From: an uncultured Bacilli bacterium
Lineage (GTDB): Bacteria > Bacillota_I > Bacilli_A > RF39 > UBA660
Assembly (NCBI GenBank): GCA_934176955.1
Contig: CAKPOS010000007.1
Span: forward strand, 15,328-79,327
Length of the DNA: 64,000 bases
Direction of reading: 5' to 3'
Each line of letters starts with the position of its first letter. Within the stretch, counting starts at the first letter, position 1. This document shows, in pieces, positions 6,442 to 63,992 of the stretch. The position numbers and the translations under genes are program-made. A model generated the notes under the pieces. That model had not been told where the DNA came from, searched no databases, and saw only the letters and a list, made by a program, of their open reading frames with translations.

Positions 6442-6461
6442 TATAAAGTGGTGATGTATTT

Positions 6462-8720
6462 ATGAATAATGGCAAAGGTAATGTTGTCTCTGATGTTGCA
6501 AAAGGATTTGTTAAAAAGAAAATTATATTGTTCTTGTTAGGCGGAAGTGGTGGTGCCGCCTTTTCTGCAATATTAATAGCTTTACCTCTTTTTATTGCAC
6601 TTTTAGTTGTTCTTGGTATTATTTCTGGTGGAGATTCATCGAATGGCTCTACCTGTATTAGTACTGAAACTGTTAATGAAGTTTGTAAATCAATTACAGT
6701 AAATGGCGAAACAATGTCTGTTGATGATTATGTTGCTCATGTTATTACGAATGAATTTGGTGGAGCTCCTGAAGAAACTTTAAAAGCTCAGGCTATTGCT
6801 GCTAGAAGTTATGGTGTTGCAGGTGCTAAAAAGGATAGTCAAGGAAATTGTGTTATTAGTGATACGTCAGAAGGATTTCAAACTTATGCAGCAACGGCAT
6901 CTGAAAGATCTATTCAGGCGGCAAAAGATACTAGTGGAATGGTTTTGTTGAATAAGGATGGTAATGTTGCAAGAGCTGAGTATTCTTCTAATTCTTTAAC
7001 GAAAGCTTATAGTTCTTTTGGTAATACGATTACAATGTCAGAAAGAAATTTAGAGATTCCACGAGATTGGTATTCTAAGAATAAAACTTGTAGTGATGAT
7101 TCTTTAAATAAAGCTAATAGTAATAAAGATGCTTATGGTAGGACTGTTTACGGTTGTGGTCATGGTCGTGGAATGGGGCAGATTGCTGCTAAGTATTTAG
7201 CGGAAGAAAAAAACTATACTTATAGTCAAATTATTGAATATTTTTATGGTAAAGATTCTCCTTATCAGTGGACTTTGGGTTCGTCTAATAGTTCCTCATC
7301 TAATTGTGGTAGTTCTTTAACAACTTTAGATCATTATACATTGGGACATGCTGGATTAAATGTTTTAAACAGGACTCTTTCTTCATCAGAAATTTCTGAT
7401 TTAAATAGTTATTTGGAACAAGAAATTGCTAAGGCTGGTCGTGGTAGTGGTGCTGCTGTTGCAGCAGCTGGTCAAGGGCTAGTTTATTGGTTAGAGCAAA
7501 AAAAATATTATTTACAGTATCGATGGGGAGGAGGCCATAGTGGATATGGTGATGGTAATTCTACTTTTATTGGTGCTAATCCTAATTGGGGAAGTGATAA
7601 GTATGGAGTAGATAATAATGGTGGAACTAATAGAAAGTATTTGGGAATGGATTGTTCAGGTTTTGTTTCTTGGGCAACTAGAACAGCTTGTAAGTCTTCC
7701 TTTGGGTCAGAAACTTCTGATAGTTGGGAAAGTTATGGTTCTAGCATATCTCTTTCTGAAGCTCAACCTGGTGATGTTATTGCTAGTGCATCTCATATTC
7801 AATTGATTGTAAAAAATAATGGAGATGGTTCGGTATATGTTGCTGAATCGGCTGGCGCTCCTACTGATGGTTTAGTTTTTTCTAAATTAACTTCTACTGG
7901 TTCTATGGTTGTTAGTATGCAAAAATGGTATGCTAATAATTGTGAAAATATTACTCCACCTGTTAATAATTCTGGGAGTTCTGGAAATTCCTCCTCTTCA
8001 TCATCTTCATCTGATGGTAGTTTGAAAAGTCAAATTAATAGTTATCTTTCAAGTAGTGTTGCTTCTGGTACTTGGTCTGTTTATGTTAAAAACTTAAAAA
8101 CAAATAAGGTTGTTGATATAAATGCAAGTAAGAAGATGAATTCTGCTAGTTCTATTAAACTATTTGTGTTGGCTTCTGCATATGATAAAGCAAAGAGTGG
8201 TAGTGTTTCTGAAGCAAGTTTTAAGGCAAATGCAAGAAAGATGATTGTTTATAGTGATAATTCTGCTACTAATAGTGTAATTGATACTATAGGAGGAATG
8301 AGTGTTGTTAATAGTTATGTTAGAAAAAATGGTTATTCTAGTACAACATTAAATCGTAAATTTGGTGGAAGTTATACAAGTAGTGGTGTTAATAATTATA
8401 CTAGTGCTAGAGATACTGGAGTTTTATTAGAAAAGATATATAATGGTTCATTAGTTTCTAGTAGTTATTCTAAAACGATGTTAGATTTCTTAAAAAATCA
8501 AAATACTAGAAGCAAAATACCTGCTGGAGTTTCTAGTGGTACTGTTGCTAATAAAACTGGTGAAATTCCTGATCAAGGAATAGAAAATGATTCTGCTATT
8601 GTTTATACTAGTGGAGCTGATTATGTTATTTCTGTAATGTCTAATACTTCTAATTATTCCAAAGCAATTACAGATATTGCTAAAATTTCAAATATTGTCT
8701 ATAAATATTATAATAAGTAG
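6462..8720 (+). CDS. Three-domain cell-wall hydrolase: SpoIID/LytB-like + NlpC/P60 + class-A beta-lactamase/DD-peptidase-like
   Basis: N-terminal TM. SpoIID/LytB signature YVAHVITNEFGGAPEETLKAQAIAARSY. NlpC/P60 catalytic Cys GMDCSGFVSWA with downstream His (ASHIQLIV). Poly-Ser linker. C-terminal serine-hydrolase triad of motifs SSIK, SDN and KTG. Confidence 0.75.
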   Translation: MNNGKGNVVSDVAKGFVKKKIILFLLGGSGGAAFSAILIALPLFIALLVVLGIISGGDSSNGSTCISTETVNEVCKSITVNGETMSVDDYVAHVITNEFGGAPEETLKAQAIAARSYGVAGAKKDSQGNCVISDTSEGFQTYAATASERSIQAAKDTSGMVLLNKDGNVARAEYSSNSLTKAYSSFGNTITMSERNLEIPRDWYSKNKTCSDDSLNKANSNKDAYGRTVYGCGHGRGMGQIAAKYLAEEKNYTYSQIIEYFYGKDSPYQWTLGSSNSSSSNCGSSLTTLDHYTLGHAGLNVLNRTLSSSEISDLNSYLEQEIAKAGRGSGAAVAAAGQGLVYWLEQKKYYLQYRWGGGHSGYGDGNSTFIGANPNWGSDKYGVDNNGGTNRKYLGMDCSGFVSWATRTACKSSFGSETSDSWESYGSSISLSEAQPGDVIASASHIQLIVKNNGDGSVYVAESAGAPTDGLVFSKLTSTGSMVVSMQKWYANNCENITPPVNNSGSSGNSSSSSSSSDGSLKSQINSYLSSSVASGTWSVYVKNLKTNKVVDINASKKMNSASSIKLFVLASAYDKAKSGSVSEASFKANARKMIVYSDNSATNSVIDTIGGMSVVNSYVRKNGYSSTTLNRKFGGSYTSSGVNNYTSARDTGVLLEKIYNGSLVSSSYSKTMLDFLKNQNTRSKIPAGVSSGTVANKTGEIPDQGIENDSAIVYTSGADYVISVMSNTSNYSKAITDIAKISNIVYKYYNK

Positions 8721-43536: not shown

Positions 43537-43642
43537 GGCATAAGAAATTATGCTCACTCCATACGGAATAAAATGTAGGAGTGTATTCAACCAAAACCCC
43601 CTGAAATCCCAGCCGAGAGGCTGGGATACTTTGTTTATAAGG
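43537..43642 (+). ncRNA. Candidate ~100-nt small RNA whose 3' terminator hairpin is the integration target
   Basis: TTGCTT (43502-43507), 17 bp, TATGAT (43525-43530). Downstream there is no ORF but three hairpins: GCATA..TATGC, CACTCC..GGAGTG and ATCCCAGCC-GAGA-GGCTGGGAT, followed by ACTTTGTTT. Identity unknown. Confidence 0.3.
43597..43642 (+). repeat. att copy A (attL of element E1)
   Basis: CCCCCTGAAAT + 9-bp-stem GAGA-loop hairpin + ATACTTTGTTTATAAGG. The same 46-bp architecture recurs at 53972 and 63946. Confidence 0.8.
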
Positions 43643-43668
43643 ACTCCAAGCCATTTCATATATGTATT

Positions 43669-43689
43669 AGGTACCCAAATAGGTACCCA
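43669..43689 (+). repeat. E1 arm-type repeats, left end (2 x AGGTACCCA, 12-bp phasing)
   Basis: AGGTACCCA at 43669 and 43681, just outside the integrase stop codon. Confidence 0.7.
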
Positions 43690-43691
43690 TT

Positions 43692-44807
43692 TTAATTTAG
43701 TTTGTCGATAATGTCGATAATTTCATTCATTTTATTTTTAAATAGATGGGAATAAGTATTTAATGTCTCATCTATTTTTGTATGCCCTAGATATTTTGCA
43801 ACTACGTTTATACTTGCATTACTATTAATTAGTAATGATGCACAACTATGTCTAAAATCATGAATTCTTATTTGTTTAACTCCTGCTAGTTTACAATTTC
43901 TATTTTTACGACTTCTAATTCTACCGTTAGTAATTGGATCAGTATCTCCAAATACATACCACTTATTATTAAATCCATAATGTTTTTCTGAAACTTTATA
44001 TAAATCTTTTAAATCTTCAAGTAATACTTTAGGTATAGGAATTTCTCTTATGCTAGATTTTGTTTTAGGTGTAGTTACCATATAAGGTTTATTTTCATCA
44101 CCTTGAGTAGCAACTACATTTTTATTAACTCTTAAATAACTATTACCAAAATCTATATCATTCCAAGTAAGACCTCTAAGTTCACCTCTACGAAGACCAC
44201 AATAATATAAAGTTTCGTACATTGTTTTATATAAAATATCTTCTTCTACAGATATAAAACTTTTAAACTCTTCATAAGTAAAGAATAACATTTCTTTAGG
44301 CATTTCATTTGGATTAGTAAAATTAGTCATTTTATTGTAAGTAGTAGTAAAGTTAAAGTTATACCATTTACTAGCATAGTTTAATAATTCTTTAAAGAAT
44401 TTAAATAGATGATTTTTATGATTAGTTGTATAACCATAAGAATTAATTTCTTTTTTCCACTTTTCAAAATGTTCTATATTGAAATCTTTTAATTTAACAT
44501 TTTCTAAATTTTTAAAGAATTTTTGTCTATCTCTATAAGTTTTTAAAGTAGTAAATTTAACTTTATCTTCTTTATAAGCATAAAACAAAGTATATAAATC
44601 TTTAAAAGTCATATTACGATTATTATCAGCTCTTTCTGTATTAAGAGTAAGAAACTCTCTTTCAGCATTTAAAGCTTCCGTTTTAGTAAAAAACTTCTTT
44701 GACTTATATTTTCTTCTTGTGCCATCTAAATTCTTTACATAGTCATAAAATATCCATTTACGGCCATCTTTTGTCCATTCTGATTTATCTAATAATTTAA
44801 CTGCCAT
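43692..44807 (-). CDS. int: Tyrosine integrase with N-terminal arm-binding domain (E1)
   Basis: YCGLRRGEL (Arg I), HDFRHSCASLLI (H-x-x-R), LGHTKIDETLNTYSHL (Tyr). The N-terminal ~60 aa (WTKDGRKWIFYDYVKNLDGTRRKYKSKKFFTKTEA) looks like an arm-type DNA-binding domain. Confidence 0.9.
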   Translation of the reverse strand: MAVKLLDKSEWTKDGRKWIFYDYVKNLDGTRRKYKSKKFFTKTEALNAEREFLTLNTERADNNRNMTFKDLYTLFYAYKEDKVKFTTLKTYRDRQKFFKNLENVKLKDFNIEHFEKWKKEINSYGYTTNHKNHLFKFFKELLNYASKWYNFNFTTTYNKMTNFTNPNEMPKEMLFFTYEEFKSFISVEEDILYKTMYETLYYCGLRRGELRGLTWNDIDFGNSYLRVNKNVVATQGDENKPYMVTTPKTKSSIREIPIPKVLLEDLKDLYKVSEKHYGFNNKWYVFGDTDPITNGRIRSRKNRNCKLAGVKQIRIHDFRHSCASLLINSNASINVVAKYLGHTKIDETLNTYSHLFKNKMNEIIDIIDKLN

Positions 44808-45786
44808 AGTATTCCTCCTTTAAATCTAAATCATCGCTATCAAATTCTAAAGGTTCCTTATATTTAGCAGTATATAATCTTTCTGTTGCAGTTCGTTTAT
44901 TTTCTATTACAAGACCATTTCTTTCTAGTTCTTTTTTATAACTGGCAAGTAACTTACCGAAAGTTGATGGAATAACATTTAATTTTAACTTATTAACCAT
45001 ATCAGATGCTGTAAAAGTAAATTCTTTCATACTAATTGCATATCTAAAGAAAGTCATAATATTTTCATTCCATACTTCATCAGCAAAGTTATCAATATCA
45101 AGTATCAAGTTTTCATTTCTTTTCAGTACGTAATCTTTACTAGGGTAATCTCTGCTTTCATACTTTAAGTAAAAAGTAGATTTAATATTCTCGTCTTGTT
45201 TTAAAGCAATTTTACCATCTACACAGGTATCAATAGCAGTACTACCTAAAGATTTGCCTTTACGATTTAAATGATGAACTATAATAATAGCAACGTTATA
45301 ATTATTACAAAGTTTTCTTAACTGTGGAAATATATTTTGACTCATATCTTGATAATTATTTAAATCATAATTATTACCAAAATTAATTCCATTAAACATA
45401 TCTATAAATACTAATTTGCCATTATACTTTTCACTAAACTCAGCAATTTCTTTTTCAACTTTTAAGATACTTATTTGAGTTAAATTATCCTCAGGAAAAG
45501 TATAAAAGAAATCTTTATCATTTAAATCTAATTCCATAAACTTGATTCTACTAATAGTCTCTGATGGATTCATTTCTGTACTTAAATATAAAACAGGAGT
45601 TTTATTAGTCTTTAAATTTAGAAAAGGAAATCCATTAGCAACAGAGTTTGCTATTTGGAGAGCAATAGCAGATTTACCAACTTTAGCTTCTCCAAGTAAA
45701 CAATATAAACCATTTTCTCTAATCATATCTTCAATAATATAATTAATATCGACAATACTACATTTTAATTCTTCAATTGTTTTCAT
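44797..45786 (-). CDS. RepA-like RecA-fold ATPase (AAA_25-type), E1 replication/mobilisation protein
   Basis: Walker A GEAKVGKS, Walker B LVFIDMF, then IIVHHLNRKG typical of RepA/DnaB-C-like P-loop proteins. Overlaps the integrase start. Confidence 0.65.
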   Translation of the reverse strand: MKTIEELKCSIVDINYIIEDMIRENGLYCLLGEAKVGKSAIALQIANSVANGFPFLNLKTNKTPVLYLSTEMNPSETISRIKFMELDLNDKDFFYTFPEDNLTQISILKVEKEIAEFSEKYNGKLVFIDMFNGINFGNNYDLNNYQDMSQNIFPQLRKLCNNYNVAIIIVHHLNRKGKSLGSTAIDTCVDGKIALKQDENIKSTFYLKYESRDYPSKDYVLKRNENLILDIDNFADEVWNENIMTFFRYAISMKEFTFTASDMVNKLKLNVIPSTFGKLLASYKKELERNGLVIENKRTATERLYTAKYKEPLEFDSDDLDLKEEYYGS

Positions 45787-45798
45787 ATAATTTCCTTC

Positions 45799-46035
45799 CT
45801 ATAAATTTTCTTTAGCCATCTTTTCTAAATAATTAATATTTATTTTTAATTTATTAACGACTTCAATCATTGGTAATCTGTTGTTTGGTAGAGTGTAGCC
45901 TTTAAGTATAAGTTCATCTTTTATTTCACGTCTTAACTTAACAGCATTATTCTTACCAATCTCTGCAAGCTTCATCAAATCATTTATATCACACCATTGC
46001 TTGCTAATTAATTTTAAAGTTTCTCTAGCGTTCAT
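45799..46035 (-). CDS. Small DNA-binding protein, possible excisionase/regulator (E1)
   Basis: 78 aa. Paralogue of 57042-57293 in E2 (ETLKLI.KQWC...D.MKL...G.N.A.K...EIK). Position between the rep-like gene and the divergent XRE gene. Confidence 0.35.
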   Translation of the reverse strand: MNARETLKLISKQWCDINDLMKLAEIGKNNAVKLRREIKDELILKGYTLPNNRLPMIEVVNKLKININYLEKMAKENL

Positions 46036-46125
46036 ATAAAATTGTTCCTCCTTTCGTTTAAACTCTAGATAAAAATGATAACCTTTTATCTATGTAAGTG
46101 ATTACCAACTAAAGAAAGAAATTAT

Positions 46126-46204
46126 ATTGTGAGTATACTCACAATTACATATTATCATATAAAAATAATTTAAGTCAATACTTTTTGTGAGTTTAGTGAC
46201 AAAA
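46126..46204. promoter_or_regulatory. E1 switch region: 20-bp perfect palindrome plus related imperfect palindrome
   Basis: ATTGTGAGTATACTCACAAT (46126-46145) and TTTTGTGAGTTTAGTGACAAAA (46183-46204) lie in the divergent intergenic region. Downstream promoter TTGTTG-17-TGgTAAAAT (46209-46237) for the XRE gene. Confidence 0.5.
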
Positions 46205-46270
46205 TCTATTGTTGATTAATCTGATTTATGGTAAAATTAATATATAAAAAGCAAAAAGAGGTGTACTTTA

Positions 46271-46795
46271 ATGAAAGATAAAACTTTGGCTAGTGTTGTA
46301 AAAGAAGCTAGAGAAAAATTAGGTATTTCACAAAGAGAATTATCTAGAAGAACAGGTATTGATAATAATACAGTTGCTAAGATAGAAAAAGGAGAAAGAA
46401 AAAAGCCTAATATTTTATCATTAAGAAAATTAAGCGTTGTTTTAAATCTTGATTATAGAAACTTGATGGAATTATGTGATTATAGTAAAGAAGAAATAAA
46501 AGCAATTGCAGATAACAATTACTATAGTTTAGCAATTAGAAATAAAGATGCTTCAATATTAATGATGGAAGACTTAATAAATCTTGTACAAGAACAAAAA
46601 TATATTAAGTTAGTTTTAAAAGAGTTATTAGAAAATTGTGATGTTAATAATTTGAAATGTTTATCAGAACTTTCTAAAAAAGAAAAAACACAAGTAATAA
46701 AAAAACTAAATGAATTTATTGATGAGAATACTAAATCAATAGAAAATCATCAAAACTCAATTGAAAATTTAAATGGAATGTTAGGTAATAATTAA
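46271..46795 (+). CDS. XRE-family HTH regulator (E1 repressor candidate)
   Basis: HTH AREKLGISQRELSRRTGIDNNTVAKIEKGERK. C-terminal coiled region. Paralogue of 57739-58260. Confidence 0.8.
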   Translation: MKDKTLASVVKEAREKLGISQRELSRRTGIDNNTVAKIEKGERKKPNILSLRKLSVVLNLDYRNLMELCDYSKEEIKAIADNNYYSLAIRNKDASILMMEDLINLVQEQKYIKLVLKELLENCDVNNLKCLSELSKKEKTQVIKKLNEFIDENTKSIENHQNSIENLNGMLGNN

Positions 46796-46810
46796 TTTTT
46801 TCAGTCAGTA

Positions 46811-46872
46811 ATGACAGTATGACACTTATATAGATACTGTCAGTGGCTCTCGTACTGTTGTCACACTGTCAT
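46811..46872 (+). other. Conserved long hairpin H (E1 copy)
   Basis: ATGACAGTATGACAC ... GTTGTCACACTGTCAT arms around a ~30-nt loop. Homologous to 63737-63797 in E2, including loop bases (GGCTCTCGTAC versus GACTCTCATAC). Confidence 0.6.
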
Positions 46873-46875
46873 AGA

Positions 46876-46948
46876 GTTATTGTCTAGCAAGCAATGAATT
46901 TCTACTCCTGTATGAAATTCTAACGTGGGAATTATCCCAAACCCTTAA
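46876..46948. repeat. Left inverted repeat (IR-L) of the E1 cargo cassette
   Basis: Reverse complement aligns with 52986-53058. The inner 22 bp GGGAATTATCCCAAACCCTTAA matches TTAAGGGTTTGGGATAATCCCC except for one substitution (T for C). Outer parts are roughly three-quarters identical by eye. Confidence 0.75.
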
Positions 46949-46975
46949 AAGAAAATATTACAAAGAAAAAAGGAG

Positions 46976-47338
46976 ATGAAAAATAATATGAAATTGATTA
47001 AAAAGGAACAAGCAGAAATATTGAAAAATAGTGACACAAGTTCACTGTTAGAATACTCGATAGCATTAGATGAGAAAGATTTAGATTTTTGTGTAAATAC
47101 TATCACAGGAAGATATCCTGAAAAAGGTTATTGTACAAATGAAGAATGTAAAGAAATATGCTATATTCTCGAAGGTGAAGGATATATAAATAGAAAAGAT
47201 GAAACTATTAAATTTAAACAAGGTGATGTAATCTTTATAGACAAAAAAGATATTTATTTTTGGAAAGGTAATTGTAAAATAATAATGATATGCTCACCCG
47301 CATGGTATAAACAACAATGTAGGTTAATTGCTGAATGA
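46976..47338 (+). CDS. Cupin-fold small protein
   Basis: 120 aa. The EICYILEGEGYI...FKQGDVIFIDK pattern resembles a cupin barrel. No metal-ligand His pair is obvious. Confidence 0.45.
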   Translation: MKNNMKLIKKEQAEILKNSDTSSLLEYSIALDEKDLDFCVNTITGRYPEKGYCTNEECKEICYILEGEGYINRKDETIKFKQGDVIFIDKKDIYFWKGNCKIIMICSPAWYKQQCRLIAE

Positions 47339-47368
47339 TTTATAAAATGTTTTTGGGAGGAAATAAAG

Positions 47369-48682
47369 GTGAAAGAAAAATTAATTAATAATTTCTTAAG
47401 AATATCCAAAATACCAAGGGAATCAGGAAATGAGGAACATATAGCAAACTTTTTTGTTAATATTGCTAAGGAAAACAATTTAGAATATGTAAAAGATAAA
47501 AATAACAACGTATTAATTAAGAAGAAAGGAAACACTGATAGTGAACCAATTGCATTTCATTCTCACTTGGATATGGTATGTGTAAAATCAAAAGATAGTA
47601 ATCATAATTTTAAGAAAGATGGAATTGATGTCATAATTAATGGCGACAAAGTTACAGCTAATAATACTTCATTAGGAGCTGATCAGGGTGTGGGTTTAGC
47701 TATTATGCTAACGCTAATAGAGGACAAAGAAACGGAACACCCAAATTTAGAATTTCTTTTTACTACAGAAGAAGAAACAACTTTTAATGGAGTAGTTGCA
47801 TTTCCGTTTTCTCTTGTCGAGAGTAAAAGTATAATTAACTTGGATAGCGATAAAGATGATGCTATTTTTGTTGGAGCATATGGCGATATATGTAATGAAT
47901 ATGTATTTAAAGGAAAGTTGATTGAAAATACACTGCCCAGCTATAAAATTTTAATTGAAGACTTACCTGGTGGAAATTCTGGTAATAATGTTGAATTGTC
48001 TGAAAGAAATGCTATAACTACTATGGCTAAATTATTGAGTAATAAAGAAATCTATATAGCAAATATAAATGGCGGTACATCCGATAATGATATAGCTACA
48101 TCTTGTGAAGTAATAATTAGTACAAATCTTAATGTTAATGATATTTTCAGTGAAGTTGGTGTGAAAGTGACTGAAACAGATAACAAATTTACGTTTTCTA
48201 GGCAAGATACAGATTACATATTAAAACAAATATTGCAGTTAAAATGTGGATTTATTTCTTCTGAAAAGGCATCGGCTAATCTTGGGTTAATTAGTACAGG
48301 AAATGATGAGGTAAAAATTTATTATGTAATCAGAAGTATGGATGAAAAAGAATTAGAGGAAATTAGCAATAACAGTAAAAAATTAAATAATAACTTTATT
48401 GTGTCCGAAGTATATAGAGATTCTGTATGGGAAGTAAATAAAGACTCTAAACTAACTGAAAAATATAAAGAAATATATCATATGGAATATTCAGAATATC
48501 CTATAGAAAGTATTGTTCCTGGTGGTAATGAGTGTTCTGCAATTAAAAATAGAATTAAGGAAGTTGATATAATTTCAATTGGATGTAATATGGAAAATAT
48601 ACATACTACCGAAGAAATTACTTATGTTAGTTCGTGGGTAAAAATATATAATTTATTGTTAAATTTAATTAAATCAATATAA
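47369..48682 (+). CDS. pepD: M20C-family dipeptidase (PepD / Xaa-His dipeptidase-like)
   Basis: GTG start. FLRISKIPRESGNEEHIANF...NVLIKKKG...HSHLDMV, GADQGVG and TTEEET follow the PepD pattern. Confidence 0.65.
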   Translation: MKEKLINNFLRISKIPRESGNEEHIANFFVNIAKENNLEYVKDKNNNVLIKKKGNTDSEPIAFHSHLDMVCVKSKDSNHNFKKDGIDVIINGDKVTANNTSLGADQGVGLAIMLTLIEDKETEHPNLEFLFTTEEETTFNGVVAFPFSLVESKSIINLDSDKDDAIFVGAYGDICNEYVFKGKLIENTLPSYKILIEDLPGGNSGNNVELSERNAITTMAKLLSNKEIYIANINGGTSDNDIATSCEVIISTNLNVNDIFSEVGVKVTETDNKFTFSRQDTDYILKQILQLKCGFISSEKASANLGLISTGNDEVKIYYVIRSMDEKELEEISNNSKKLNNNFIVSEVYRDSVWEVNKDSKLTEKYKEIYHMEYSEYPIESIVPGGNECSAIKNRIKEVDIISIGCNMENIHTTEEITYVSSWVKIYNLLLNLIKSI

Positions 48683-48709
48683 ATTTTGAAATAAAGGAAG
48701 GTTAAAGAT

Positions 48710-49855
48710 ATGGATAAAGTAAAGATTCTATGGAGTGGTATAACAGGAAGAACTGGTAAAGAGGCATTCCAATTATCAAAGGAAAGTGATAGTGTAGAAA
48801 TCGTAGCAGGTATATGTAGGAATGATAGTAATTTTTATAATTATGATGAACTAGATAAAATAACTGAAGATTTTGATGTTATTGTGGATTTTTCTCATAA
48901 AGATAGTTTTGATAAAGTATTAAGTTATGCTTTGAAAGTTGGTAAACCAATTATAATTGGAACTGCAGGATTAACTGAAGAACAAATGAATGCTTTTGAA
49001 GAAGCTTCTAAAATTATACCTGTATTTAGAGGTGGAAATTTTAGATTTGATGTTAAGAATTTTATCGATCAAGTTGTTGCGTATGCAAGAACTTGTGAAG
49101 AAAATAATATAGAGTTAATTGAAACGCATTATAAAACTAAAAAAGTACCAAGTGAAACAGCAAAAGTTGTTGCTAAAAGAGTTTTAGATGAAACTGGTAA
49201 GAATGTGGAAATAAAATCATTTTTAGAATATGATGAGCTAATAAATGATTGGAAAGTTGCAGATTTACATTGTAGAGTTGTAGGATTTAAAGAATTAGCT
49301 AGAGATGTTTTAAATATTGCTGTAATGATGAAAAATAAGAAAGCAGATGGAATTTATGATTTAGATAGATTATTTAGAGAAAGAAATATAGATGATTTAT
49401 ATAAATTCTTAATTGAAGCGAAGAAACAAACTTATGCAAATGAAAATGTAAAAAAAGTAAATCCTTCAAGAAAAGGTTCTCATGATTATCATTATGAAAA
49501 TGATAAGATGATGTATCATGATACTTATTTTGGTGGAACTAAATTTATGGGGGAAGAAGTTGTATATTTTAATAATGAGACTCCAATTTGGGGAATGAAC
49601 TATTATGGTGTTACTATTGATGAAACACTTAGTGAGGAAGCTATGGATAAAGCATTAAGACCTGCATTAATGATGGTTGGAGAAGATACTAATGTAATAC
49701 CAGTAAGAGGTCCAAGAAATTATCAAAATGGTGAATATAAATATAATTTTTCAGTAACTGGAAATTTAGAAAACTTTGAAGGATGCGAAACAATTCATAA
49801 AGGAAAAACAAAAGTTTATGAGTTAAAATGTCATGGTGGAATAATTAAAAGATAG
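48710..49855 (+). CDS. DapB-like reductase fused to a DUF5680-like C-terminal domain
   Basis: DapB motifs GITGRTGKE, VDFSHKDS, IIGTAGLTEEQ and ETHYKTKKVPSETA. The C-terminal ~150 aa (TYANE...HDYHYENDKMMYHDTYFGGTKFMGEEVVYFNNETPIWGMNYYG) resembles DUF5680 as I recall it. Confidence 0.5.
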   Translation: MDKVKILWSGITGRTGKEAFQLSKESDSVEIVAGICRNDSNFYNYDELDKITEDFDVIVDFSHKDSFDKVLSYALKVGKPIIIGTAGLTEEQMNAFEEASKIIPVFRGGNFRFDVKNFIDQVVAYARTCEENNIELIETHYKTKKVPSETAKVVAKRVLDETGKNVEIKSFLEYDELINDWKVADLHCRVVGFKELARDVLNIAVMMKNKKADGIYDLDRLFRERNIDDLYKFLIEAKKQTYANENVKKVNPSRKGSHDYHYENDKMMYHDTYFGGTKFMGEEVVYFNNETPIWGMNYYGVTIDETLSEEAMDKALRPALMMVGEDTNVIPVRGPRNYQNGEYKYNFSVTGNLENFEGCETIHKGKTKVYELKCHGGIIKR

Positions 49856-49866
49856 GAGAAATATTT

Positions 49867-50553
49867 ATGAAAAAAACAATAGCAATTACAGGTGGTAGTG
49901 ATGGTTTAGGTAAAGCTATTGCCAGAAGACTTAATGCTGAGAATAATGTTATTATAATTTCAAAGGATGAAGAAAGTTTAATTAAAACTGCTGAAGAAAT
50001 TAATTGTGATTATTATGTTTGCGATGTAACTGATTATAAACAAGTAAATAATACAATAAACGATATTTTAGACAAAAATAATAAAATAGATATATTAATA
50101 AATAATGCAGGAATTTGGTTAGCAGGAGATTTGACCGAAACTGATTATGAAAGAATAAGTAATTGTATTGACGTTAATACAAAAGGGCCTATATATATGA
50201 CAAAAGCAGTATTGCCAAGTATGTATGAAAATAAAGAAGGATTAATTATAAATGTATGTTCACAAGCAAGTTTTGATAGTGATGACTTCTCAACTGTATA
50301 TAATGCATCTAAGTGGGCTATGAGAGGATTTAATCGTTCTATACAAAAAGATGTAAGTAAAAAAGGGGTAAAAGTAACTGGTTTTTATCCTGGGTTTATG
50401 CAAACAGATATATTTAAAAAAGCAGGTAATGACTATGATACTTCAACAGGTTTGGAAGTAGAAAAAGTGGCAAAAGCAATAGAATTTATTGTAAATTGCG
50501 ATGAAGATGTTATTATTCCAGAATTTGGAATTAAAGATATAGAAAATTATTAG
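49867..50553 (+). CDS. Short-chain dehydrogenase/reductase (SDR)
   Basis: TGGSDGLGKAIA cofactor motif, NNAG, catalytic YNASK. Confidence 0.85.
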   Translation: MKKTIAITGGSDGLGKAIARRLNAENNVIIISKDEESLIKTAEEINCDYYVCDVTDYKQVNNTINDILDKNNKIDILINNAGIWLAGDLTETDYERISNCIDVNTKGPIYMTKAVLPSMYENKEGLIINVCSQASFDSDDFSTVYNASKWAMRGFNRSIQKDVSKKGVKVTGFYPGFMQTDIFKKAGNDYDTSTGLEVEKVAKAIEFIVNCDEDVIIPEFGIKDIENY

Positions 50554-50584
50554 AGTAGTTTGATTTATAAATCAGGAGGTTTAA

Positions 50585-51505
50585 ATGGGTAATAAAACTG
50601 TGAAAAAAAAGCAATATGAAAGCTTCAATCTATATTATTTAAATCTGAGCAAAGTATATGAAATATCAATGATGATTAATAATATTATTGTATCTTCATA
50701 TGAAAGAGAAACTGGAAATAGTACAACTAAAAGGAAGTATAAAAAATCATCACTTGATGGACAAATTGATTCTAAATATTTGGCTAGCGTAAAATCAATA
50801 TTAGAAACAGGTAGTTCTAAAGAAAAAGTAACATCTTCAAAAGTTACAGAAAAATTAGATGTTAAAACGACAAAATCAATTTTATTGAAAATGATTAAAA
50901 ACAAATCTAAACAAGTGGAATTTTTAGATAAATGTGATGAGGGAGAATTAGTTTTGTTGAAAAATGTTAAATTATCAATTTTAGATAAAGATAATTTAAG
51001 ACAAATGTTACTTTTAAAGAGAGATGCCTTAAAAGGAATACAAGTTGAAGGAATTGAAATTAATAATATTATAAACTCTATGATAAATGACTATTCATAT
51101 ATTTTGTCCGGAAGTATTAAAGATGAATCTGGAACACAACAATTTATTATTAAAATACCATTTGAAATAGAAAATGAGTTTGAAAACAATTATAGTGTAG
51201 ATGATATTATTCTAGGTAATGTTTCTGTAATTGGTATATATAAAAATAAAAATACAATTGAGGACATAACTAACAATACATTAAATTATTTTTCAAGAGC
51301 AGATTTCATAAATAGTAATGAAAGTAAATATATAAAAAGTGGTAAACAAAATACACAAGACACTAATAATTTTGATGGTATAAAAGAGGCTCATTACATA
51401 GATGTAATAGGAATTATTCAAGAAATAAAATTTGATGATGATGTTAAAGTTGGATTATGGGCTAGATTTAAAGCATTTTTGGAGAAAAAGAAAAATGAGA
51501 AGTAA
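50585..51505 (+). CDS. Hypothetical protein, partner of the ClpB-like AAA+ gene (possible DolA-like)
   Basis: 306 aa with no recognisable catalytic motif. Its 3' end overlaps the start of the AAA+ gene by 11 nt, implying co-translation. Confidence 0.35.
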   Translation: MGNKTVKKKQYESFNLYYLNLSKVYEISMMINNIIVSSYERETGNSTTKRKYKKSSLDGQIDSKYLASVKSILETGSSKEKVTSSKVTEKLDVKTTKSILLKMIKNKSKQVEFLDKCDEGELVLLKNVKLSILDKDNLRQMLLLKRDALKGIQVEGIEINNIINSMINDYSYILSGSIKDESGTQQFIIKIPFEIENEFENNYSVDDIILGNVSVIGIYKNKNTIEDITNNTLNYFSRADFINSNESKYIKSGKQNTQDTNNFDGIKEAHYIDVIGIIQEIKFDDDVKVGLWARFKAFLEKKKNEK

Positions 51506-52970
51506 ACTTTATTATTATAGAGATAAAAATGAATTTGATAGATTTTATAATGAGAGCGACAAAAAAATTGTTCCATTTGAATTTGTAGAAACAAAAAAAA
51601 TAATAGAAGAAGAATCTGGCTATATTATAGATATAACTAATATGGTATCATTTACTGATTCTAATCAATCAAATATCTATTCTGCCATAATTAATTTAAA
51701 GGATTTGGATGAAACAAATCAAATAATAATAAATAAAGATTGGTCAGAAAAAGCTTTGTATTTATTTCCAACAATTTTTGAACAAGCAGTTCCAATCTTT
51801 GATGAAGAAATTACTAAAGAAATTTGCTTAGAAAGTTTTAAAAGAACTCTTTGGTATTATAATGAATCTCAATATGAAAGTTTGCTAAAACATATCGAAG
51901 AAAACAAAATAATAATAACAAATTTTGCAACTTTACAAAAATATAATAATTATGACTATGAAATTTTGCTAGACTTAACAAGTACAATTGATAGTATAAA
52001 AGGAAGTCAGCAATTAATCTTTTTATTAGAACAATTTTTTGTCACTGCCAATACAAACATAAAAGCAATTATAAACTCCAATAGACTTGATGAAATAAAA
52101 GAAACATTGAGGCTCACATTTAAAGAATATAAAAACATTTCAGATTTATATTCGAATATTACTGATAAAAATAATAAATCTTCAGAAATAAAAGAACCAG
52201 TAAGAATTATTGATTTAAATAAAAAGGAAATTTCACAATTGTTTAATAATATAAGTAATAGCTTGATAGGACACGTGGAATTTAAAAATTATTTAATATC
52301 CCAATTAGAAAAGTTTGTAGTTTTAAATAAAATTGGAGAGCGCAAAGTGTTTTCAATGTTTTTATTAGGAAAACCAGGATTAGGTAAAACAGAAATTGGC
52401 AAAATAATTAGTAAATCGTTAAATGAGGATTCTAACGTTATAAAAATAAATTTTGGGAATTACTCAAGCCAAGATGCTCTTAATAGTTTAATTGGCAGTC
52501 CGGCAGGATATATAGGATGTGAAGGTGGAGAATTAGGGAAAAAAGTTAATTCAAATAAAGTTGGAGTTATAATTTGCGATGAATTTGAAAAAGCGGATTC
52601 AGAAATAAAAAACTTTTTTCTCGAATTATTAGAAGATGGAAAATTTACAGATTCAATGAGCAGGGAATATGATATAAATGGTTATATAGTAATATTTACA
52701 TCAAATATAAAAAATGAAAATGAATTTAAAAGTAAGATATCTCCTGAATTTGAGTCGAGAGTAAACTTAATTTGTGAATTTACACCACTAACATATGAAG
52801 AAAAAGCACAATATGTAAGATCCCAAATAAATAGATGTTTAGAAAAAATGAAAAAGAATGATATAAATATTAATTTCAAAGCAAGTGATGTAGATGTTAT
52901 TTTTAGTGATACAGATGATTTGAGAGAGATAAAAAACAGAATTTTAAATAAAATATCTGAATTACTTTAA
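51495..52970 (+). CDS. AAA+ ATPase with ClpA/ClpB D2-type (AAA_2) module and unknown ~280-aa N-terminal domain (possible DolB-like)
   Basis: ATG at 51495 (MRSKLYYY). LIGHVEFKNYL..., Walker A FLLGKPGLGKTEIGK, LIGSPAGYIGCEGGELG, Walker B VIICDEFEKADSEIKNFFLELLEDGKFTDS and IVIFTSN reproduce the ClpB D2 motif order. Confidence 0.75.
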   Translation: MRSKLYYYRDKNEFDRFYNESDKKIVPFEFVETKKIIEEESGYIIDITNMVSFTDSNQSNIYSAIINLKDLDETNQIIINKDWSEKALYLFPTIFEQAVPIFDEEITKEICLESFKRTLWYYNESQYESLLKHIEENKIIITNFATLQKYNNYDYEILLDLTSTIDSIKGSQQLIFLLEQFFVTANTNIKAIINSNRLDEIKETLRLTFKEYKNISDLYSNITDKNNKSSEIKEPVRIIDLNKKEISQLFNNISNSLIGHVEFKNYLISQLEKFVVLNKIGERKVFSMFLLGKPGLGKTEIGKIISKSLNEDSNVIKINFGNYSSQDALNSLIGSPAGYIGCEGGELGKKVNSNKVGVIICDEFEKADSEIKNFFLELLEDGKFTDSMSREYDINGYIVIFTSNIKNENEFKSKISPEFESRVNLICEFTPLTYEEKAQYVRSQINRCLEKMKKNDININFKASDVDVIFSDTDDLREIKNRILNKISELL

Positions 52971-52985
52971 ATAGTTCAATGTTAA

Positions 52986-53058
52986 TTAAGGGTTTGGGAT
53001 AATCCCCATATATGAATTGTTGCGGGAGTAAGAATTCAGTGCTGGCACAGACAACAAT
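52986..53058. repeat. Right inverted repeat (IR-R) of the E1 cargo cassette
   Basis: See IR-L. TTAAGGGTTTGGGATAATCCCC at 52986-53007, then GGAGTAAGAATTCAGTGCTGGCACAGACAACAAT aligning with the reverse complement of 46876-46910. Confidence 0.75.
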
Positions 53059-53079
53059 TTACTCCCTTAAAGACATTTA

Positions 53080-53112
53080 AAGCACTGCCTGAAAAAAGAT
53101 AGTGCTTATTTT
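53080..53112. terminator. Hairpin terminator between convergent genes
   Basis: AAGCACT ... AGTGCTT stem followed by ATTTTTT. Confidence 0.45.
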
Positions 53113-53424
53113 TTAATTAAAATTAATCATTTTAAATTTAGTGATATCTATGATTTTTAAATTGTATTTTATTCTTAAAATTAGTTCTATTTGCGGTATT
53201 AACTTATCAATATTACATCTAACATTAAATACATCAATTGCAGAGTTGATATGATTACGAAGTGGGCAATCTGATAAACAATTTCTGCTATGTCCATTTG
53301 CTAGATAAAATGCTATTGTATCAGGTATAACAAAGTTAATAAGATATTCATTATAATTGTTATAAAATGGTAATAATATTTTTTCAAATTCTTTATCAGT
53401 TATATCTTCTTTGCCTTTAATCAT
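53113..53424 (-). CDS. Hypothetical protein (E1)
   Basis: 103-aa ORF whose start overlaps the stop of the TnpV-like gene by 4 nt (ATGA). No motif recognised. Confidence 0.4.
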   Translation of the reverse strand: MIKGKEDITDKEFEKILLPFYNNYNEYLINFVIPDTIAFYLANGHSRNCLSDCPLRNHINSAIDVFNVRCNIDKLIPQIELILRIKYNLKIIDITKFKMINFN

Positions 53425-53783
53425 ATTTCATCTCCATAGACGATTTCTCTTAAAACTATTTTTTCAGCAATGTTTTTACAAGTATTCATTTTTTGAATCC
53501 ATAACATTTGATTTTTAGCTTTTAATTTTTCAGTAATAGTACCATCGAATTCTATTAGTTCATTTATTAAATAATTAACTTTATTTCCTGCTTCTGTACT
53601 TACTGAAAAAAGATGTTCATTTAATTTATCTTTCATTAGTAATTCTTGATATAATGCCTTCTTATGATTCTTTAAATATTCTAATCTTAATAATCCATAT
53701 TTATTTAATTGTTTGTTTTCTTTTTCAGCAAGTGCTAAATCAGGCAAGTAATAATCTCCATATTTTTTATAATTTATTTTCAT
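53421..53783 (-). CDS. tnpV: TnpV-family protein
   Basis: YKKYGDYYLPDL..., KYGLLRLEYLKNHKKALYQELLMKDKLNEHL, and QMLWIQKMNTCKNIAEKIVLREIVY follow the TnpV pattern of clostridial transposons, from memory. Confidence 0.6.
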   Translation of the reverse strand: MKINYKKYGDYYLPDLALAEKENKQLNKYGLLRLEYLKNHKKALYQELLMKDKLNEHLFSVSTEAGNKVNYLINELIEFDGTITEKLKAKNQMLWIQKMNTCKNIAEKIVLREIVYGDEI

Positions 53784-53836
53784 AATTACAAATCCTTTCT
53801 TTAGTGAAGAATATTAGTAGTATTGTTTTTAATTTT

Positions 53837-53857
53837 AGGTACCCATTTAGGTACTCA
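53837..53857 (+). repeat. E1 arm-type repeats, right end (AGGTACCCA + AGGTACTCA, 12-bp phasing)
   Basis: Same 9-mer, orientation and phasing as at 43669-43689. Confidence 0.7.
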
Positions 53858-53971
53858 ATTACTAAAATCTCTTAAAATTATATAAATTTTTATAATTAGA
53901 ATTAATTTATAATTGCTTAAAATATAAGGATTTAATTAGCAATAATTTATTTTATATATGAAAGATTTTGG

Positions 53972-54017
53972 CCCCCTGAAATTCCCCTCGAGAGAGGGGA
54001 ATACTTTTGTTTATAGG
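53972..54017 (+). repeat. att copy B (junction E1/E2)
   Basis: CCCCCTGAAAT + ATTCCCCTC-GAGA-GAGGGGAAT hairpin + ACTTTTGTTTATAGG. Confidence 0.8.
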
Positions 54018-54043
54018 GGATTTTTAACTATTTTGGATTTATC

Positions 54044-55041: not shown

Positions 55042-55821
55042 ATCTCCACCAATTTCTTCTCTAAATAGATTGTGAATCCTTTAGATTTGATAAATTCATT
55101 ATAATCATCTTGAAGTAGAGTATAAGATGCATTACCATCTTTTTGTTTCCAAAATTGATTTGAATTTAGAAATTTACCTTTAACAGTTTCATAAATATTT
55201 TTACCATTCTTATCTTTCTTTTGAATAGGTACTAATTTCTTTTCTCCTTTTTTATTAGTTATTTTGTGTTTTACTTGATGACCATTTTCATCTAGTTCAA
55301 ACACCTTTCTTTTAACTTCATTAACTACTGGAGTAAAATATATATACATATGTGGTGTAGATTCATCAAGATGTTATATTTTCACTACCTACATATTCTT
55401 TAATAAAATTTAAACTTTCGTCAAAGAACATTTTTATTTCAGCTGGTAAATTATGATTTTCATCTATAATTACATGTCTAATTGGTTTACCAGCATTATC
55501 TCCAGTTTTATAAACTTCTCCAGTATCTTTAAATTCCATACCATAATGTTCAAAAAATTCTTGACCACTTGATATAATTAATCCATTTAAAACCTTTGTG
55601 CTTTTTTTATTTGGATTATAGTTTATATTATTAGAATAAAGATAATCAAATGTTGAACTTGCTAGAGTAGGTCCATCATAATTTATTAATTCTATATTAT
55701 ATGGAGTTCTAGTACTATCATATTTACCAGAACCTTTTCTTTCCTTTAATTCTTTATCAAGTCCACCAATATCTGATGCTTTAAACTTTTCTAATCGTAG
55801 TGCTTGTTTTTCTGAGTACAT
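55032..55821 (-). pseudogene. mob: MobV-family relaxase, frameshifted and 3'-truncated
   Basis: N-terminal ORF (55366-55821) has RLEKFKASDIGGLDKELKER...YNIEL. The metal motif HLDESTPHM is encoded at 55347-55373 in a different frame, continuing into ORF 55032-55349. Total is only ~256 aa. Confidence 0.75.
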
Positions 55822-56075
55822 TTATTTTGACCTCCTTTCAATGCTTGTTTTAAAATAATACTCTATCTCACTAGGGCATAATATATGCCCAACCGTGAGC
55901 TAAGGAATATTCCTTAGAATCCTTTATGCTTGTAATAGCTAGAACCAATACCTAATAAATAGGTAATGGCATTCGCTATCACAAGATTAATTAAACGATA
56001 TACCATATCATTTAATTAATGGATAATGAATTTACTATCGCCACTTCCAACCTTACAGGTCAGAACGTGCCACGT
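55822..56075. other. Structured non-coding region, candidate oriT of E2
   Basis: Noticeably more G+C than its surroundings. Nested hairpin CTCAC-TA-GGGCAT-AATAT-ATGCCC-AACC-GTGAG, perfect palindrome CTAAGGAATATTCCTTAG, and TACCT..AGGTA. Immediately 5' of the relaxase relic. Confidence 0.4.
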
Positions 56076-57026
56076 TTATTCATTATTTTCGGAAGGTTCT
56101 TCATAAGAACAATGCCATAATCTTTCGTTAGCAGTTCTTTTACTTGTTATATGAAGACCTTCTTTTTCAAGCAATTGTAGGTTTCTTTGAATTAAACCTC
56201 CAAGTTGTGTTGGTGTTAATAAAATATTTGTTTTAGATAAGATATCTGATATAGTGTAATCAAAATCTTTCTTAGCAACTGCATATTTTATAAATAGAAG
56301 TAGATTATAATCGGTTTCATCATCAGTATTTTCATCTATAACACTAAATGTTTGATTTTCATTTCTTTTCAAATTTAATTCTAATCTACTAAAATCCCTA
56401 CCTTTATAATCTAAAGTTAGTTTATTACAATTACTTTTTGACTCTTTTAATTTCATAATTCCAGATGCATCAGCAGTTAGTCCGACACTACCCATAATTC
56501 CATTACTTTTATTTAAGTGATGTGTAACAAATAATGTGCAGTTATATTTTCTACATATTTCTTTAAACTTTTTAAATACAACATTATTTATTTCTTGATA
56601 ATCATTTTGATTATAGTTACTATCAAATTTAATGTCTTTAAACATATCAATTATTACGAATAAAGGTTCTTTATCAAAGGTTAATTCATGAATGTCTCTT
56701 TCAATATCTCTGATATAAAAATCTGGAATATCATCTATGTCTATAATGTGAAGTTTATCTACATTAGGTTTCAAATTCATTAATTTAAATCGGTCTTATA
56801 ATTGATTTATATCGCCCTCTGTGGTAATATATAAGACATGAGAGGGATTTACTTTGAATCCTAAAAAATCTTCTCCAGTAGTAAGAGAGAAGGCAAGTTG
56901 CTGAGCAAACATTGACTTGCCAACCTTAGGATGAGATACAAGTAGATAAACTCCATTTGATATCATTAGGTTTTCGACGATGATATCTTTTTTTATGCTT
57001 TTATTTACTTCGTTTATTTGTTTCAA
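56076..57026 (-). pseudogene. RepA-like RecA-fold ATPase interrupted by one in-frame TAA (E2)
   Basis: ORFs 56796-57026 (Walker A HPKVGKS) and 56076-56780 are in the same frame, separated only by the TAA at 56796-56798 (...DINQL*DRFKLMNLKP...). Collinear with the intact E1 gene 44797-45786. Confidence 0.8.
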
Positions 57027-63945: not shown

Positions 63946-63992
63946 CCCCTGAAATTCTCCTCGAGAGAGGGGAATACTTTTGTTTATAAGGG
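63946..63992 (+). repeat. att copy C (right end of E2)
   Basis: CCCCTGAAAT + ATTCTCCTC-GAGA-GAGGGGAAT hairpin + ACTTTTGTTTATAAGG. The flanking GGATTTTTAA matches the left end of E2. Confidence 0.8.

Follow-up and report, generated by a model that had tools for sequence, protein, structure and literature searches.

What is the two-gene module that closes the cargo of a mobile element in an uncultured Bacilli bacterium, and how does it relate to known phage defense systems? The question was raised by a stretch of 64,000 nucleotides (nt) of contig CAKPOS010000007.1 (assembly GCA_934176955.1, positions 15,328 to 79,327 of the forward strand; hereafter the window). An initial annotation, made from the DNA letters and their open reading frames (ORFs) without database searches, had singled out two overlapping genes, here termed A and B, as a candidate defense system, possibly one resembling Dodola. 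Our analysis indicated that A and B probably constitute a long-form member of PDC-M37, a sister clade of the validated Dodola system, and that the pair travels as cargo of an integrative mobilizable element.

The A-B pair matches the phage defense candidate PDC-M37

PDC-M37 is a phage defense candidate of PADLOC, represented by models PDLC04601-04606 in PADLOC-DB v2.0.0. When the two proteins were compared with these models, PDLC04605 matched B at an E value of 3.8e-132 (B residues 1-488 aligned with positions 1-508 of the 518 in the model), and PDLC04602 matched A at 4.2e-76 (residues 12-284 against positions 3-275 of 277). Since both proteins match over their full lengths, the pair can be assigned to a candidate that is already catalogued, and not to an undescribed system. 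As in PDC-M37, A precedes B, and the two genes are adjacent and co-oriented; no structural difference was seen, and the pair looks like a typical long-form member. The family comprises at least 343 clusters at 50% identity and includes long (~490 to 525 amino acids [aa]) and short (~390 aa) forms of B as well as A proteins extended by transmembrane (TM) helices, all of which were recovered in this work.

These matches changed two points of the initial annotation. It had foreseen an undescribed ClpB-like two-gene system in case A was not a DUF6414 protein; by Pfam A is indeed not DUF6414, yet the pair is PDC-M37, and the proposal had to be given up. It had also described A as a gene with no recognizable motif, which held for Pfam and NCBIfam, neither of which matched A, but not for PADLOC, which recognizes the protein. 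In a survey of defense systems among members of the Bacillus cereus group, PDC systems are called unpublished candidates, and in its supplement the same protein pairs appear as "Dodola" by DefenseFinder and as "PDC-M37" by PADLOC (PMC11811056).

PDC-M37 as a divergent sister of Dodola

Given that DefenseFinder labels PDC-M37-type pairs of B. cereus "Dodola," one might ask whether the window pair is simply canonical Dodola, that is, a DUF6414-containing DolA plus a DolB of ~360 to 390 aa, for which a separate label would be needless. The general layout is the same: Dodola is a two-gene operon, dolA then dolB, in which a single-ring ClpB-like ATPase comes second, and homology to both Dodola proteins was detected. 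B matched the PADLOC DolB model at 3.2e-28 (residues 121-490 against positions 8-366 of 375) and aligned by hhalign with the tested DolB sequences through its AAA+ half (residues 237-485; probability, 99.2%; E = 2.1e-19). Window A did not match the PADLOC DolA model, and three other A-family members, all partners of short-form B, matched it nearly full length at ~1e-5. A narrow A profile built from partners of long-form B only (number of effective sequences [Neff], 2.6) gave E = 0.022 (2%) against two DolA sequences. The value improved to 3.1e-5 (73%) when an A-family profile of 165 sequences (Neff, 5.4) was set against two DolA sequences, and to 9.4e-7 (91.3%; 168 columns) when the 165-sequence profile was compared with a profile of 120 DolA sequences. 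Significance was reached only when both profiles were diverse. Control comparisons gave E = 0.0067 for a reversed profile, 0.09 to 0.5 for ten column shuffles, and 0.11 to 0.15 for unrelated profiles, which we rated as at least 4 orders of magnitude worse than the real comparison. In a global alignment, A residues 12-286 were collinear end to end with DolA residues 1-256. These data argue that A is a remote homologue of DolA, and that PDC-M37 is a divergent sister of Dodola in which both components are homologous and the gene order is the same. The suggestion of a candidate defense system possibly akin to Dodola has therefore gained in substance, through the DolB match, the remote DolA homology, the shared gene order, and the mobile or defense-related contexts described below.

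Several observations are, however, at odds with plain canonical Dodola. PF19952, the Pfam family of DUF6414 that defines DolA, was missed by A and 47 relatives even at E ≤ 10 (further relatives were put through Pfam in sets of 28, 10, and 10), whereas the authentic DolA proteins of the two tested systems, run as a positive control, matched it at 1.2e-21 and 3.7e-29. A search for DolA homologues returned 181 proteins; the top 120, which were listed, all carried PF19952, and none of them appeared in the A-family list. The PDC-M37A and PDC-M37B models were better than DolB by 50 to 100 orders of magnitude, with A missing DolA entirely. The proteins also differ in build. DolB has ~362 to 391 aa with one N-terminal region, whereas B has 491 aa with two N-terminal modules, of which the first is extra; DolA has ~256 to 260 aa and no C-terminal tail, whereas A has 306 aa and an added tail, and relatives of A carry TM extensions. 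In place of the FxxYxFG of DolB, B has a complete ClpB pore-loop motif, GSPAGYIGxxGGEL. By eye, motifs of A and DolA could still be placed side by side (KTTKSILL versus TITNTILT, FENNY versus RNGY or RNNY, and YIDVI versus IYDIV or IIDII). Finally, Halobacillus amylolyticus encodes a canonical DolA together with a plasmid-borne PDC-M37 pair, consistent with the two being paralogous systems. Thus, we consider it improbable that the window pair is canonical Dodola, and a sister family remains the better description.

B is a single-ring ATPase of the ClpB D2 type

Pfam detected only AAA+ families in B, with AAA_2 covering residues 284-431 at 2.1e-22. The NCBIfam ClpB and ClpA models matched the D2 part only, at 94 to 102 bits versus cutoffs of ~1,000 to 1,200; the ClpB model aligned through its positions 592-803 of 853 at 101.8 bits, its cutoff being 1,232. 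The PDB profile matches, which included ClpC (6em9, 5.7e-40) and ClpB (4lj4, 3.1e-38), were likewise confined to D2 (profile positions 246-418). Since D2 alone was matched in NCBIfam and the PDB profiles, B lacks a D1 ring, a middle domain, and a Clp N-domain. The initial annotation had read the absence of D1 and of a middle domain correctly, as well as the ClpA/ClpB order of D2 motifs, and all four motif strings it quoted were found in the translation. The AlphaFold model of B has a mean predicted local distance difference test (pLDDT) score of 86.5, and Foldseek retrieved ClpC1, ClpA, and ClpB with it at ~1e-15.

Conservation in B was scored across 55 family members. The pore loop has four invariant residues (G334, S335, G338, and G341), with Y339 found in at least 90% of the sequences; we take the loop, GSPAGYIG, to correspond to the ClpB D2 motif GAPPGYVG. 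Little or no variation was seen at two arginines, R422 and R477. The D2 Walker A and Walker B motifs, the pore-loop tyrosine, and the sensor motifs of ClpB/Hsp104 and ClpA/ClpC are thus also found in B, whose ATPase site is intact. Unlike ClpB/Hsp104, which has D1 and D2 rings, a coiled-coil M-domain, and a Clp N-domain, B has one ring and neither domain. Only 13 residues (IKNENEFKSKIS), with no IG(F/L) tripeptide, lie between TSN404 and PEF. In comparison with ClpA and ClpB, this linker presumably has no room for an IGF/IGL loop of the kind that docks ClpP in ClpA, ClpC, and ClpX. Since no such room is left, B should be an active, pore-threading, stand-alone unfoldase or remodeller with no protease partner.

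The same data bear on the explanation that B is a housekeeping subunit of a Clp-type chaperone or protease and A an unrelated neighbor. Its ClpB/ClpA D2-type motifs would suit such a role, but B scores ~100 bits where the curated ClpB/ClpA models require ~1,000 to 1,200, it has no D1, M-domain, Clp N-domain, or space for a loop that docks ClpP, its coupling to A is strict (75 of 75 loci), and its distribution is patchy and linked to mobile elements. We regard this explanation as effectively refuted. When plasmids were searched with B by tblastn, most matches were ClpK, ClpL, and TssH, accompanied by four true PDC-M37 short-form pairs; two matches examined more closely proved to be ClpL and ClpA. 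A search of viral folds in BFVD retrieved generic AAA+ proteins only.

The N terminus of B is a tandem duplication

The non-AAA+ N terminus of B spans ~235 aa and consists of two segments, N1 and N2 (Table 1). Aligned with each other by hhalign, they gave a probability of 99.1% and an E value of 1.9e-18 over 99 columns, which shows that the N terminus consists of one ~100-aa alpha/beta module duplicated in tandem. It had initially been taken for a novel, unrelated region of ~280 aa; the lack of a relationship to D1 stands, but the region is shorter, duplicated, and conserved across the family. Neither N1 nor N2 was related to the AAA+ module of B by hhalign (E = 0.22 and 0.48, respectively), and a PDB profile search with the N terminus found no relative. 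We also considered a degenerate D1, as the Foldseek alignments span both Clp rings, but a TM-score of ~0.43 fits D2 alone, and since neither the hhalign comparisons nor the PDB profile search supported it, this reading was set aside.

In short-form B (~390 aa), N1 is absent and N2 is kept, and the PADLOC DolB model aligns to B only from residue ~121. Direct comparison of the B modules with the DolB N terminus by hhalign, for which two DolB sequences only were used, yielded E = 0.2 to 0.6, which is too weak to relate the two. Each module is predicted to adopt a (beta-alpha)5 arrangement in which a conserved Tyr ends strand 1 and an invariant Asp-x-Thr ends strand 3 (D46 and D160), a predicted topology reminiscent of CheY-like receiver domains.

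Alternative terminal extensions in the A family

AlphaFold modeled A with moderate confidence only (pLDDT, 65.4). Foldseek found nothing below E = 0.08 for this model in the PDB, i.e., no significant structural neighbor, and a PDB sequence-profile search with A gave no match. The weak Foldseek matches were enriched in nucleic acid binders with an OB fold, which we treat as a lead only. At the C-terminal end of A, AlphaFold predicted a helix for residues 291-305, within the tail described in Table 1.

We surveyed the A family with 93 representatives at 50% identity, each of which has a complete core. N-terminal TM helices, one to five in number, were predicted in 32 of the 93. The C-terminal tail was found in none of these 32, and it is present in 33 of the 60 representatives that have no N-terminal extension. 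The mutual exclusion of TM helices and tail suggests that they are two alternative routes by which A reaches the membrane. A further hypothesis was that the tail co-varies with N1 because the two dock. It gained support from genome loci, in 53 of 54 of which a tailed A accompanies long-form B, and was weakened by 15 tail-less, TM-bearing A proteins whose partner is a B of ~520 aa.

Two other variants of A were encountered. P0273 (745 aa) carries an N-terminal extension of ~450 aa on a complete A core; the extension is not a TM segment and has no Pfam match, and it might serve as another kind of sensor or effector domain. In one metagenome contig (L087, positions 6969-7833), A is split into ORFs of 200 and 95 aa and the upstream dehydrogenase gene is altered, while B is 100% identical to window B; either the system is decaying in the population concerned, or the contig may be misassembled.

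A and B are co-inherited on mobile elements

A scan of one genome per species yielded 231 relatives of B, and 80 loci were fetched. An A-family ORF lies on the same strand as B in all 75 informative loci, directly upstream in 74; in L059, A is located 2.5 kb upstream. In the five uninformative loci, B starts within ~160 nt of a contig end, and A is not visible there. Starting from TM-variant A genes, a B-type gene was found downstream in all 57 informative loci (directly adjacent in 54), and the partners include both short-form B and the ~520-aa form. These data indicated that, across phyla, A and B are inherited together as an operon in which A comes first. The sole informative case of A without B is metagenome contig Ga0183097_10271 (L155), where the 3.6 kb downstream of A hold no B-type gene; in the near-identical contig Ga0183095_10080 (L154), a long-form B lies 222 nt downstream of A.

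Most carriers belong to Bacillota, and others were found in Coriobacteriia; single loci came from metagenome-assembled genomes (MAGs) assigned to Gastranaerophilales, Chitinophagaceae, and Methanobrevibacter. In the Methanobrevibacter MAG, which is archaeal (L045, positions 5023-7362), the pair is of the PDC-M37 type, and its A is split into ORFs of 130 and 184 aa. A 2026 paper reports that DefenseFinder called "Dodola" in Methanobrevibacter intestini (PMC13078230).

In the window, the pair is carried by integrative element 1 (Table 1), whose genes are an integrase, AAA_25, an Xis-like ORF, an XRE regulator, cupin, M20 peptidase, DapB_N/DUF5680, a short-chain dehydrogenase (SDR), A, B, a 103-aa ORF, and TnpV. 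A and B are the last cargo genes on the forward strand, with the 103-aa ORF and TnpV between B and the right end of the element. The placement of the pair at the end of a mobile-element cargo, noted at the outset, was thus corroborated by the integrase, the Xis-like ORF, TnpV, and a repeated boundary motif. The same element with an identical pair was seen in at least six metagenome contigs, where it lies downstream of uvrA and a xerD-like gene. Another element of this kind, with other cargo, ends in a 73%-identical pair that is again followed by the 103-aa ORF and TnpV. A megablast search of element 1 against plasmids gave no match.

Elsewhere, the pair resides at the edge of a Tn916-like integrative and conjugative element (ICE) in Listeria, inside an ICE between type IV secretion genes in Faecalispora, and in Robertmurraya beside bAvd, a KAP NTPase, three integrases, and QatB. 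Plasmids carry it in Halobacillus, Priestia, and Listeria seeligeri, with DUF4062 or HEPN genes near it in two of these. Every context examined is mobile or defense-related. Failure of A and B to co-occur, or housekeeping surroundings, had been named in advance as signs against a defense module; what was found instead is pairing in 75 of 75 loci and a mobile or defense-related setting in every context examined.

This constant association with mobile DNA also invites the reading that the pair serves the element itself, by addiction (in the manner of a toxin-antitoxin system), by exclusion, or as a chaperone of transfer or integration, and has no part in phage defense. All examined contexts are indeed integrative elements, ICEs, or plasmids; A, B, the 103-aa ORF, and TnpV are kept in the element lineage while other cargo changes; and in Faecalispora the flanking genes belong to type IV secretion. 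Yet the elements are of different types and share no backbone gene beside the pair, the neighbors in Robertmurraya (KAP NTPase, bAvd, and QatB) are of the defense type, and the homologous Dodola protects against phages when cloned alone. Moreover, defense systems often travel as cargo on such elements. We therefore give this reading little credence, about as little as canonical Dodola, and favor a defense system carried as cargo.

Layout and expression signals of the pair

The coordinates of the pair and its features are given in Table 1. The longest form of the B ORF begins with TTG at 51432 and would encode 512 aa; the ATG at 51495 gives the 491-aa form used here. From this ATG, the A and B genes overlap by 11 nt (51495-51505), an arrangement that had been described from the letters and was borne out by the ORF list. 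Together with a GGAG ~10 nt 5′ of this ATG, the overlap fits translational coupling, and A and B are translationally coupled. A hairpin ~110 nt past the B stop codon has a folding energy of −11.3 kcal/mol (z = −3.2 against shuffled sequences) and is followed by AUUUUUU; a consensus terminator scan did not pick it up. A promoter scan returned 52 hits versus 58.9 expected from shuffled sequences. Since this is no enrichment, we claim no dedicated promoter for the pair.

Table 1. Positions in the window of the A-B pair, its signals and motifs, and the carrier element (conservation in B as scored in the text)
Feature	Position	Strand	Description or basis
Integrative element 1, carrier of the pair	43600..53990		~10.4 kb; Pfam, boundary motif, repeats
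Integrase of element 1	43692-44807		Pfam
Ribosome-binding site of A, AGGAGG	50574..50579	+	Sequence reading; 5 nt before ATG 50585
Gene A	50585..51505	+	ATG start, 306 aa; DolA-like, PADLOC PDC-M37A, remote DUF6414 homologue
C-terminal tail of A, residues ~288-306, VKVGLWARFKAFLEKKKNEK	51446..51502	+	Predicted Trp-containing amphipathic helix, then basic end
Gene B	51495..52970	+	491 aa; long form of PADLOC PDC-M37B, single-ring ClpB-D2-like AAA+ ATPase
B N1 module, residues 2-101	51498..51797	+	First copy, ~100-aa alpha/beta module; conserved Y8, D46
B N2 module, residues 116-215	51840..52139	+	Second copy; conserved Y122, D160, T162, E179
B AAA+ module, residues ~246-491	52230..52967	+	ClpB/ClpC D2 type; PDB profile search, hhalign versus DolB
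Walker A, G292-E300, GKPGLGKTE	52368..52394	+	G292, G295, G297, K298, E300 invariant
Pore loop, G334-G341, GSPAGYIG	52494..52517	+	Contains Tyr339
Walker B, V358-E363, VIICDE	52566..52583	+	D362, E363 invariant
Sensor-1, T402-S403-N404	52698..52706	+	T402, N404 invariant
Terminator-like hairpin and U-run 3′ of B	53080..53115	+	RNA fold

Assessment of the assignment and a proposed mechanism

We hold the family assignment and the defense role with good confidence, and several points have to be set against them and against the picture of a membrane-linked A. No published phage-challenge data were found for any PDC-M37 member, so the defense role rests on homology and context. As to homology, PF19952 missed all 48 A-family members scanned, window A among them. 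As to Dodola, the systems tested were those of B. cereus FM1, marked "v," and Bacillus thuringiensis BMB3201, marked "x," in the supplement of the preprint of Millman et al. (2022), the main text of which does not use the later system names (10.1101/2022.05.11.491447). We read these marks as protective and not protective, respectively; with one tested system marked "x," protection is not guaranteed for every homologue. In Streptococcus thermophilus, Dodola was broadly protective, and its copy number made a difference (10.1101/2024.10.22.618286). As to context, A and B belong to a tight six-gene operon with metabolic-looking genes, the gaps being 11 to 31 nt, and the other cargo of element 1 has neither a PADLOC match nor a defense annotation. 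The remaining points concern A. The model of its structure is weak, at a pLDDT of 65, and no structural neighbor reached significance; TM helices were called by a simple hydropathy window, not by a dedicated predictor; the hydrophobic moment of the tail is moderate, at 0.37 in P0001 (95% identical to A) against a cutoff of 0.5; the 15 tail-less, TM-bearing A proteins paired with a ~520-aa B weaken the idea that tail and N1 interact; and the A gene is split in one metagenome contig (L087).

A literature search found no published mechanism for PDC-M37 or Dodola; an AlphaFold study predicted a hexameric ATPase for Dodola and obtained weak nucleic acid-related matches only for its partner protein (PMC11514479). 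We tentatively propose that A anchors the complex to the membrane's inner face, by its amphipathic tail in the window pair and by TM helices in relatives, and that it would act there as a sensor or an adaptor. Upon infection, hexameric B would be engaged via its N-modules and would pull a polypeptide through its pore at the expense of ATP; this polypeptide could be a phage protein that A presents, or else A itself. In the latter case, threading would switch A to a toxic, membrane-active state. Phage multiplication would be blocked, possibly through abortive infection. This membrane-plus-unfoldase scheme is a possibility that we hold far less firmly than the family assignment. A stronger version, in which long-form PDC-M37 is a mechanistically distinct, membrane-associated unfoldase defense whose ring catches and unfolds phage proteins arriving along with the DNA or renders A membrane-damaging, with the N-module as a receiver-like sensing or docking domain, strikes us as unlikely, if not as remote as the two alternatives weighed above. 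If true, a membrane-held unfoldase with a receiver-like N-module would be a feature not described for Dodola.

Surroundings of the pair in the window

Upstream of A, an operon on the forward strand (46976-50553) encodes cupin, M20 peptidase, a DapB_N-DUF5680 fusion, and short-chain dehydrogenase. In the relative with the 73%-identical pair, acetyltransferases and a Ser_hydrolase-NUDIX fusion take the place of the cupin-to-dehydrogenase genes. Downstream of B, the 103-aa ORF, which has no family match, and TnpV lie on the reverse strand (53113-53783), convergent with B. Both also adjoin A-B in a related element with different cargo (L093-L095), and together with A-B they may be part of a conserved end-module of the element.

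Element 1 is not alone. Positions 43600-63990 hold two tandem integrative elements of ~10 kb and the start of a third, and each has an integrase, AAA_25, a small Xis-like ORF, a divergent XRE regulator, and then cargo. A boundary motif consisting of CCCCCTGAAAT, a hairpin, and ACTTT(T)GTTTATA recurs at ~43600-43650, ~53975-54020, and 63959-63988, and the latter two boundaries have a 30-nt exact repeat in common. Element-specific short direct repeats, TAGGTACCCA and TAGATACCA, adjoin the boundaries, and TAGGTACCCA is present at both ends of element 1. In a contig from another metagenome (L085), the second position is taken by a different element with other cargo. Element 2 looks decayed: on its reverse strand (55366-57026), AAA_25 is broken up into two ORFs, at 56076-56780 and 56796-57026, and the Mob_Pre relaxase has only 151 aa. 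The related element in L085 has an intact Mob_Pre of 470 aa and an AAA_25 gene encoding 318 aa.

Implications

The window pair is a catalogued candidate and no new kind of system. The different ways in which PADLOC and DefenseFinder split or lump Dodola and PDC-M37 matter for censuses of defense systems. Possibly new are the tandem N-module of B, the alternation of TM helices and tail in A, and the quantified homology of A to DolA; the interest of these observations is moderate and lies mainly in the purchase that they give on the mechanism of Dodola. Taken together, the analysis ties Dodola, a validated anti-phage system, to a sister family of greater size and variety, and PDC-M37 offers experimental handles in its fully ClpB-like pore loop, in an N-module that is present once or twice, and in a partner protein with a TM anchor or an amphipathic tail.

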